Below are positions 16,760 to 17,781 of a DNA stretch of 64,000 nucleotides, piece after piece (the stretch's first letter is position 1; the number at the start of each line of letters is the position of its first letter). This stretch comes from Escherichia coli. Its GTDB lineage: Bacteria; Pseudomonadota; Gammaproteobacteria; Enterobacterales; Enterobacteriaceae. The notes beneath the pieces were generated by a model that did no database searches, had not been told where the DNA came from, and saw only the letters and a program-made list of their open reading frames with translations. Where the stretch lies: the NCBI RefSeq assembly GCF_030013205.1, contig NZ_CP122648.1; one strand, written 5' to 3'. The translations under genes and the position numbers were made by a program.

Positions 16760-17527
16760 GTGACATATTCGATTGGCATTGATTCTGGTTCTACCGCCAC
16801 CAAAGGGATCTTACTGGCAGACGGCGTGATTACGCGCCGTTTCCTCGTTCCAACACCCTTTCGTCCGGCAACAGCAATTACTGAAGCCTGGGAAACTCTG
16901 CGCGAAGGGTTAGAGACAACGCCGTTTCTGACGCTCACCGGCTATGGACGGCAACTGGTGGATTTTGCCGATAAACAAGTGACGGAAATCTCCTGTCATG
17001 GGCTGGGCGCACGGTTTCTTGCGCCAGCAACGCGCGCGGTAATCGACATCGGTGGTCAGGACAGCAAAGTGATTCAGCTTGATGATGACGGTAACCTGTG
17101 CGATTTCCTGATGAATGACAAATGCGCGGCGGGCACCGGGCGTTTCCTGGAGGTGATCTCGCGCACGCTTGGCACCAGCGTCGAGCAACTCGACAGCATT
17201 ACCGAAAATGTCACGCCGCACGCCATCACGAGTATGTGCACAGTGTTTGCCGAATCAGAAGTGATCAGCCTGCGCTCAGCGGGCGTCGCGCCAGAAGCGA
17301 TTCTCGCCGGAGTGATTAACGCGATGGCGCGGAGGAGTGCCAATTTCATTGCTCGTCTCTCCTGTGAAGCGCCGATTCTGTTTACTGGTGGCGTTAGTCA
17401 TTGCCAGACGTTTGCCCGGATGCTGGAATCTCATCTGGGAATGCCGGTAAATACCCATCCTGATGCGCAATTTGCTGGCGCAATTGGCGCGGCGGTAATT
17501 GGTCAACGAGTGAGGACACGCCGATGA
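16760..17527 (+). CDS. yjiL: BadF/BadG/BcrA/BcrD-type ATPase (dehydratase activator, HgdC-like)
   Basis: GTG start after a ggag RBS; IGIDSGSTATKG acetate/sugar-kinase fold motif; about 255 aa. Confidence 0.8.
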   Translation: MTYSIGIDSGSTATKGILLADGVITRRFLVPTPFRPATAITEAWETLREGLETTPFLTLTGYGRQLVDFADKQVTEISCHGLGARFLAPATRAVIDIGGQDSKVIQLDDDGNLCDFLMNDKCAAGTGRFLEVISRTLGTSVEQLDSITENVTPHAITSMCTVFAESEVISLRSAGVAPEAILAGVINAMARRSANFIARLSCEAPILFTGGVSHCQTFARMLESHLGMPVNTHPDAQFAGAIGAAVIGQRVRTRR

Positions 17528-17781
17528 AAGAGTTTTTATTTTTATTTCACTCCACAGTCGGCGTCATACAAACCCGCAAAGCGTTGCAGGCAGCGGGCAT
17601 GACTTTTCGCGTCAGCGATATTCCCCGTGATTTACGCGGCGGCTGCGGGTTATGCATTTGGCTGACCTGTCCCCCCGGCGAGGAAATACAATGGGTGATC
17701 CCTGGGCTGACTGAGTCAATTTATTGTCAGCAGGATGGTGTCTGGCGCTGCATTGCACATTACCGGGTTTCTCCGCGTTAA
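17524..17781 (+). CDS. Small DUF3343-like protein (putative S/Se-carrier-like), translationally coupled to yjiL
   Basis: ATG overlaps the yjiL TGA (ATGA); 85 aa with FHSTxxxxxxxKALxxAG...DIPRDLxxGCGLCI pattern resembling DUF3343; fills the yjiL-yjiK gap. Confidence 0.5.

Follow-up and report, generated by a model that had tools for sequence, protein, structure and literature searches.

The DUF3343 gene ytiA as a coupled third gene of the yjiM-yjiL double-cubane reductase unit in Escherichia coli, with a possible role in sulfur or selenium relay

The subject of this analysis is ytiA (b4715), a short gene at positions 17524..17781 (+) of a 64,000-nucleotide stretch of Escherichia coli DNA, referred to below as the window. 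We conclude that a conserved unit, yjiM-yjiL-ytiA, ends with ytiA as a translationally coupled cistron. The first gene of the unit, yjiM (15599..16750, +; RefSeq coordinates), encodes a predicted class II double-cubane-cluster protein (DCCP) reductase; yjiL (16760..17527, + with the RefSeq GTG start) encodes an ATP-dependent activase/reductase of the type that serves such proteins (DCCP-R); and ytiA encodes an 85-residue protein of family PF11823, now called Se_S_carrier and formerly DUF3343. The reading that we favor, at a probability of roughly 0.35, is that YtiA may be a sulfur or selenium relay protein, with a loop that would hand a bound atom to YjiM, there to be reduced as a "large substrate" at the expense of ATP.

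The existence of ytiA, and its membership of a known family, were already on record. The original prediction, made from the sequence, supposed that K-12 has no annotated gene in this interval, and here it was mistaken: K-12 MG1655 carries ytiA as b4715 (YP_009518833.1, "uncharacterized protein YtiA", 4563668-4563925), between yjiL and yjiK, and the RefSeq protein WP_000657675.1 is labeled in E. coli as "DUF3343 domain-containing protein". Because the gene is present in both the K-12 and the RefSeq annotation, no gene discovery is involved. In the literature, searches for ytiA, b4715 and PF11823 yielded no paper or experiment on the E. coli gene and no biochemical results for any member of the family; the matches to the name ytiA concerned other organisms (e.g., a paralogue of a ribosomal protein in Bacillus subtilis) or were strings of text with no relation to the gene.

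The yjiM-yjiL-ytiA unit

The 85-codon frame is located and organized as originally predicted. Its ATG (17524-17526) overlaps the TGA stop codon of yjiL (17525-17527), forming an ATGA start-stop overlap (17524..17527, +) of the kind associated with translational coupling, and a Shine-Dalgarno-like GAGGA lies inside yjiL (17512..17516, +), 7 nucleotides 5' of that ATG. Purine-rich stretches are found at the equivalent position in the yjiL-ytiA junctions of other genera. The frame ends 64 nucleotides before the GTG at 17846 that is the RefSeq start of yjiK, and the five remaining frames of 17524-17781 contain 2-5 stops each. The product contains exactly the residue pattern FHST...KAL..AG...DIPRDL..GCGLCI that had led to its being called DUF3343-like, and this assignment is borne out by the Pfam model PF11823, which matches with E=4.5e-13 and 48.9 bits (gathering cut-off 25), aligning YtiA residues 4-59 with profile positions 2-57 of 69. 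None of the NCBIfam models matched YtiA. At 85 residues YtiA fits the size range of DUF3343 proteins, typically 80-100 residues (PMC5322559), and its orthologues mostly have 78-91.

Orthologues of 52-96% identity were found in at least 10 genera, with hosts including E. marmotae, Citrobacter, Klebsiella, Raoultella, Kosakonia, Atlantibacter, Yokenella and Phytobacter, among others, to which further scans added Hafnia, Morganella and Aeromonas. The reading frame is kept across these genera. The ratio of nonsynonymous to synonymous substitution rates (dN/dS) between genera is about 0.15-0.34 for the whole of ytiA, 0.04-0.22 for its N-terminal 46 codons and 0.28-0.54 for its C-terminal part; for yjiM it is 0.04-0.08 and for yjiL 0.06-0.15, all of these being comparisons in which synonymous sites are saturated (dS 1.2-2.3). 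In GC content, too, ytiA (0.52) resembles yjiL and yjiM (0.53-0.56) and not yjiK (0.42). That is, ytiA is a genuine gene, distinguished from a chance frame by its Pfam match, by the stops in the other frames and by a reading frame kept under purifying selection. A profile search of 1.84 billion representative sequences gave 120 relatives of YtiA at E<=1e-3. A relative at 37% identity sits in the same three-gene arrangement. Four large proteins, P0155 (485 residues), P0175 (2562), P0206 (550) and P0226 (407), have 5-6 stretches each that match the YtiA profile, a pattern that suggests tandem DUF3343 repeats.

The partners of ytiA had been described in the original prediction as homologues of 2-hydroxyacyl-CoA dehydratase and its ATP-dependent activator. 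The second half of this description stands: YjiL scores 364.3 bits against TIGR00241 (cut-off 125.4) and matches Pfam BcrAD_BadFG at 1e-76. The first half is superseded. YjiM, which carries the Pfam domain HGD-D, scores 531.9 bits against the NCBIfam equivalog NF040772, "double-cubane-cluster-containing anaerobic reductase" (cut-off 350), and is 39% identical (E=4e-75) to the solved DCCP of C. hydrogenoformans (6ENO/7YYL). On this score, and on cysteines that align with those of 6ENO, YjiM is better called a predicted class II double-cubane [8Fe-9S] cluster reductase than a 2-hydroxyacyl-CoA dehydratase. It has been named before as a possible "class II" double-cubane form, the double-cubane cluster having an extra bridging sulfide and classes I and II retaining a conserved cysteine close to the opening that lies above it (PMC7317905). 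Together, DCCP and DCCP-R are described as a two-component, ATP-driven, low-potential reductase whose physiological function is unknown (PMC9351452). A protein homologue search with YjiM listed only near-identical enterobacterial proteins.

The constancy of the third gene was assessed in 80 loci, namely those closest to E. coli YjiM in a DCCP alignment scan with one genome per species, a sample in which DCCPs of classes I and III are not represented. These loci were searched with a purpose-built DUF3343 hidden Markov model (HMM) and with YjiL, and the calls of neighboring genes rest on our own open reading frame (ORF) calling and HMMs. In all 25 gammaproteobacterial loci a DUF3343 gene lies directly 3' of yjiL with its start overlapping the yjiL stop, by 4 nucleotides of the form [AG]TGA in 21 loci, by 1 nucleotide in three and by 11 in one. 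The flanks of the unit differ among K. pneumoniae, Yokenella and C. amalonaticus, and the triplet HGD-D / BcrAD_BadFG / Se_S_carrier is kept in all three. The coupling proposed for the E. coli sequence is thus a property of every gammaproteobacterial locus in the sample, and we take ytiA in this clade always to be made from one message with yjiM and yjiL. Among the Firmicutes loci, where identity to YjiM is 57-70%, a DUF3343 gene occurs within 6 kb in 7 of 55. With 25 of 25 in the one group and 7 of 55 in the other, DUF3343 is constant as the third cistron throughout one large clade; elsewhere it is a partner only now and then. Accordingly, the notion of ytiA as the third component of the yjiM-yjiL unit is supported by conserved synteny in gammaproteobacteria and, in the loci sampled, does not carry over to most Firmicutes.

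Conserved cysteine, predicted fold and genomic company of YtiA

The first 45 residues of YtiA are almost fixed among the enterobacterial orthologues. Orthologue and family alignments, together with an AlphaFold2 model, define a conserved loop and the start of strand 3 at codons 32-45 (17617..17658, +), which include Pro34, Cys41 (codon 17644-17646) and Cys44 (codon 17653-17655). In the enterobacterial orthologues Cys41 is invariant and Cys44 is conserved in at least 90%; Cys49, Cys68 and Cys76 are variable. In an alignment of 36 DUF3343 members, with identities as low as 19%, Phe8, Pro34 and Cys41 are the sole invariant residues, and Leu21 and Gly42 are conserved in at least 90%. Cys44, near-invariant among the orthologues, is often replaced by Ser, Ala or Gly in the distant members of this alignment. 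The sequence around Cys41, P-R-x-L-x-x-x-C-G in YtiA, reproduces the family context P-x-x-L-x-x-x-C-G, and a highly conserved cysteine in DUF3343 has also been pointed out by others (PMC5322559).

The AlphaFold2 model of YtiA (pLDDT 91.3, pTM 0.82) has the topology b-a-b-b-a-b-b. In it, residues 33-42 form a loop between strand 2 (28-32) and strand 3 (43-49), and this loop holds the conserved DIPRxLRGGC. YtiA is therefore confidently predicted to have a ferredoxin-like fold, with Cys41 at the end of an exposed loop. A sequence search of solved structures with YtiA gave only chance-level matches (E>=0.075), and the best structural neighbors of the model are PII proteins, CutA, ACT/RAM modules and UreE.

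Two familiar types of protein were considered for YtiA and rejected. A ferredoxin-type Fe-S carrier needs 3-4 conserved cysteine ligands, and only Cys41 is invariant in the family. Homology to the sulfur carrier TusA was not detected: there was no PF01206 match at E<=1, hhalign returned a probability of 0.3% against an E. coli TusA sequence entered by hand, and YtiA lacks the TusA hallmark, a two-layer alpha/beta sandwich whose helix 1 begins with the active cysteine in a CPxP motif.

The name of the widespread DUF3343/Se_S_carrier family is itself a prediction, drawn from comparative genomics only (PMC5322559). In our data, DUF3343 genes are recurrently linked to desulfurase-type enzymes and to genes of sulfur and selenium trafficking. 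Five of the seven Firmicutes DCCP loci with a DUF3343 gene also contain a member of TIGR01977, "cysteine desulfurase family protein" (438-453 bits, cut-off 377), whose second-best match is the selenocysteine lyase SclA, at scores under the cut-off of that model. A TIGR01977 gene is present in 4 of the 48 loci that lack DUF3343 (Fisher p=7e-4, with only about three independent lineages behind this number). Tyzzerella has the order desulfurase-DUF3343-activase-DCCP, and two Dorea have desulfurase-DCCP paralogue-DUF3343-activase; in two Acetobacterium the order is DCCP-activase-desulfurase, after which comes a DUF3343 gene in convergent orientation. In a sixth locus, that of Acetoanaerobium pronyense, about 1.3 kb downstream of the DCCP-activase pair and on the opposite strand (L049 9196-10488, -), a 430-residue fusion joins an N-terminal DUF3343 domain (PF11823, 64 bits, residues 3-71) to the radical S-adenosylmethionine (SAM) maturase of [FeFe]-hydrogenase, HydE (TIGR03956, 303 bits, cut-off 254.6).

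A similar picture emerges when the neighborhoods are approached from the DUF3343 side, using ten members outside the enterobacterial orthologue group, two of which (L014, L016) lie on short contigs that give no context. One member adjoins a DCCP and its activase (L013), one a TusA+DsrE fusion (L015) and one YqeC (L099). Another overlaps a YedE/YeeE-like Sulf_transp gene (L017), and a further one has as neighbors a gene of that type, a class-V aminotransferase and a LysR gene (L018). In L100, TusA is followed by a class-V aminotransferase and then by an overlapping DUF3343 gene, and in L101 the neighbor is a divergent class-V aminotransferase. Published surveys agree with this linkage. DUF3343 clusters with selenocysteine lyase and YedF, and the locus tags of a Slackia genome run in the order activase, DUF3343, selenocysteine lyase, YedF, DUF3343, HGD-D (PMC5322559); duf3343 ranks within the first five genes by frequency of overlap with selD (10.1101/2022.04.13.486033); and a preprint reports an enrichment of double-cubane proteins where a genome has a selenoprotein-rich system (10.1101/2022.07.06.499078).

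Sulfur or selenium relay and the alternatives

How might a small protein with one invariant cysteine act together with YjiM and YjiL? In the mechanism that we favor, Cys41 of YtiA, by the pattern of its conservation, is predicted to carry a persulfide or perselenide, which it would take from a class-V pyridoxal phosphate (PLP) enzyme. In Firmicutes the donor could be the product of the adjacent, dedicated gene of the cysteine-desulfurase or selenocysteine-lyase type; in E. coli, IscS, SufS or CsdA would presumably take this part. The YtiA loop would then offer the bound atom to YjiM, whose channel appears wide enough for a large substrate and has a conserved non-ligand cysteine at its mouth, and the ATP-energised electrons of YjiL would act on the carrier-bound sulfur or selenium species. 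A bolder form of this idea, which we put forward tentatively and with considerable doubt, is that the physiological partner or substrate of class II double-cubane enzymes might be protein-bound sulfur or selenium on the loop cysteine of a DUF3343 protein and not a small molecule or CoA ester, such that YjiM, YjiL and YtiA would form a three-component ATP-driven machine acting on persulfide or perselenide obtained from a class-V desulfurase or selenocysteine lyase. If this is true, it ties DCCPs to DUF3343 and links DCCPs to selenium and sulfur trafficking. The strict yjiL-ytiA coupling and the Firmicutes clusters of desulfurase, DUF3343, activase and DCCP provide a concrete hypothesis that is testable in E. 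coli. The literature searched contains no paper in which DUF3343 is regarded as a partner of double-cubane reductases.

Several considerations weigh against the proposed relay. No DUF3343 gene occurs within 6 kb in 48 of the 55 Firmicutes loci, and in these the carrier must therefore be dispensable, encoded elsewhere or replaced; its absence from most orthologous DCCP loci of Firmicutes counts against every model of partnership. DCCP systems have been described as two-component (PMC9351452). The E. coli unit contains no desulfurase gene, and the release of sulfide from a persulfide is not obviously in need of ATP-driven low-potential electrons. In most members, moreover, Cys41 and Cys44 make up a CxxC motif, which could imply a different chemistry, and the literature that could be searched yielded no experiment on YtiA.

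The main rival, which we judge improbable on the whole while giving it real weight, is that the carrier chemistry is as above and the sulfur from YtiA goes into the assembly or repair of the [8Fe-9S] cluster of YjiM, perhaps as its bridging sulfide; YtiA would be a dedicated maturation factor in the manner of NifS/NifU. In Tyzzerella, Dorea and Acetobacterium a dedicated desulfurase-family gene and DUF3343 stand beside the DCCP and its activase, which can be read in this way, as can the fusion of DUF3343 to the H-cluster maturase HydE in Acetoanaerobium and the presence of an extra bridging sulfide in the cluster (PMC7317905). However, most of the close Firmicutes DCCP loci lack both the desulfurase and DUF3343, and cluster assembly therefore does not generally need them. 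The C. hydrogenoformans DCCP, obtained from a heterologous host, reportedly carried its cluster. Most other contexts of DUF3343, furthermore, concern trafficking and not assembly.

A different possibility, rather unlikely in our estimation, is that YtiA handles no atom at all and serves as a non-catalytic small subunit or regulator of YjiM/YjiL, such as a ligand-sensing or docking module akin to PII or ACT domains. It is among PII, CutA, ACT/RAM and UreE that the model finds its best structural neighbors. Topologically, the conserved loop of YtiA lies where PII proteins have their T-loop, namely between strands 2 and 3; the tight start-stop coupling, in turn, suggests stoichiometric co-production with the enzyme. 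On the other side, a PII/ACT-like module would be recognized by a significant structural match together with ligand-binding motifs, a combination that YtiA did not show.

We attach little probability to a thiol-disulfide role in which YtiA, through Cys41-x-x-Cys44, passes reducing equivalents to or from YjiM/YjiL. The C41-G-L-C44 segment is indeed a CxxC motif, and its second cysteine, conserved in at least 90% of the enterobacterial orthologues, is common in distant members. Nevertheless, Ser, Ala or Gly replaces Cys44 in many members (e.g., CGISI, CGLAW and CGISL), and the model puts this residue inside strand 3, not at the N-terminus of a helix as in a thioredoxin-type CxxC. Activases of the YjiL type, moreover, get their electrons from ferredoxin or flavodoxin.

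Comparably poor odds apply to the proposal that YtiA belongs to general sulfur or selenium trafficking and is merely co-transcribed with yjiM and yjiL. DUF3343 does occur in many contexts without a DCCP, just as most Firmicutes DCCP loci are without DUF3343. Against this stand the overlap with yjiL, kept in 25 of 25 gammaproteobacterial loci despite changing surroundings, and the independent DCCP-DUF3343-activase arrangements in Firmicutes, which differ in gene order; a single E. coli strain in which ytiA is split by an insertion sequence (IS) and yjiM has an internal stop also speaks for a functional tie. Finally, the idea of a chance or decaying frame that yields no protein, for which one can adduce that the literature searched gave no proteomic or ribosome-profiling evidence for ytiA, is effectively refuted by the Pfam match at E=4.5e-13, dN/dS well under 1 at saturated dS, the conserved start-stop overlap and Shine-Dalgarno sequence, and the confidently predicted fold.

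Variation, flanking genes and related systems

A 701-base query around ytiA matched 5385 of 5426 complete E. coli genomes, with at least 80% query coverage in 4737, and also three plasmids. An IncC plasmid, pVCpro_41, has been reported with an MFS transporter gene and yjiL and yjiM of Klebsiella origin (PMC10215782). Twenty evenly spaced records were sampled from the matching genomes as an annotation check: 17 name ytiA, "DUF3343 domain-containing protein" or "putative Se/S carrier protein", two are O157-like strains with an 88-residue variant, and in one the gene is split by IS50R. The window copy differs from that of K-12-derived J53 by three nucleotides, one of them non-synonymous. In the O157-like strains (L002 4225-7010), similarity to the window ends at about codon 70 of ytiA (window ~17734 onward); their 88-residue product has a different end, ...AEASTRQ, and espX6, a type III secretion system (T3SS) effector gene, stands between ytiA and yjiK. 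Within E. coli the C-terminal half of ytiA is unusually divergent, with dS ~1.07 as against 0.07 for the N-terminal half. In the strain FCI1 (L011 1300-5025), IS50R splits ytiA and yjiM has an internal stop, damage that may reflect joint decay of the unit in this single case. In the strain A30, IS1A interrupts a 701-base yjiL-ytiA-yjiK stretch that is otherwise 100% identical to the window.

Downstream of ytiA, yjiK (17846..18706, +), which encodes an SdiA-regulated domain (Pfam PF06977, 2.5e-94), lies outside the conserved unit. The region 3' of ytiA is variable, and in Klebsiella and Yokenella the position of yjiK is taken by unrelated genes. A genomic SELEX (systematic evolution of ligands by exponential enrichment) study places a constitutive RpoD promoter of yjiK, CTGACC-19-TACAAT, in the 'yjiK-yjiL spacer' (PMC3946193); in the window this sigma-70 site falls inside the ytiA coding sequence, at codons 47-57 (17662..17692, +). 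If the site is used, yjiK is transcribed from within ytiA, which fits a unit that includes ytiA and excludes yjiK. Our own promoter consensus scan did not call this site, and the scan for promoters and terminators gave nothing above the shuffled expectation, with no terminator between ytiA and yjiK.

Upstream of the unit, a 79-residue DUF2164 gene lies just 5' of yjiM in Klebsiella, Yokenella and Citrobacter (L003 3739-3978, L005 3059-3298, L007 3740-3979), and likewise in 11 of the 25 gammaproteobacterial loci. No trace of it was found by tblastn in the yjiN-yjiM gap of the window (15484-15598, 115 nucleotides). Other apparent associations in the 80 DCCP loci were discarded: that with ABC transporters (20 loci) came from single-linkage grouping of unrelated ABC ATPases whose positions vary, and many clusters of neighbors were antisense shadow ORFs.

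Among known systems close to this unit is the DCCP/DCCP-R pair of C. hydrogenoformans (6ENO, 7YYL), of which YjiM and YjiL are the E. coli counterparts. That system has been described as two-component, whereas all 25 gammaproteobacterial loci add a third, coupled gene; YjiM differs, too, in being of the shorter "class II" type, whose channel is open (PMC7317905). The carriers TusA, YeeD and YedF (PF01206) resemble YtiA in having about 80 residues and one essential-looking cysteine, and they, like DUF3343 proteins, adjoin cysteine desulfurases and YedE/YeeE-type transporters. The principle proposed for YtiA, a persulfide on one cysteine, would be the same.

SufE and CsdE are likewise small partners that stand beside a class-V PLP desulfurase and have a single conserved loop cysteine, a likeness of arrangement and not of compared folds. 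The DUF3343 contexts of this type are those of L076, L084, L092, L100 and L101. Nonetheless, no sequence relationship between SufE/CsdE and YtiA was detected, and no desulfurase gene lies next to the unit in E. coli. The NifS/NifU set of nitrogenase and the HydE/F/G set of [FeFe]-hydrogenase, finally, are comparable to the DUF3343 and DCCP clusters in which a desulfurase-type gene and a small carrier stand beside an enzyme with a complex Fe-S cofactor; the set of DUF3343 and DCCP genes differs from these in having no scaffold-type protein and in being absent from most DCCP loci.

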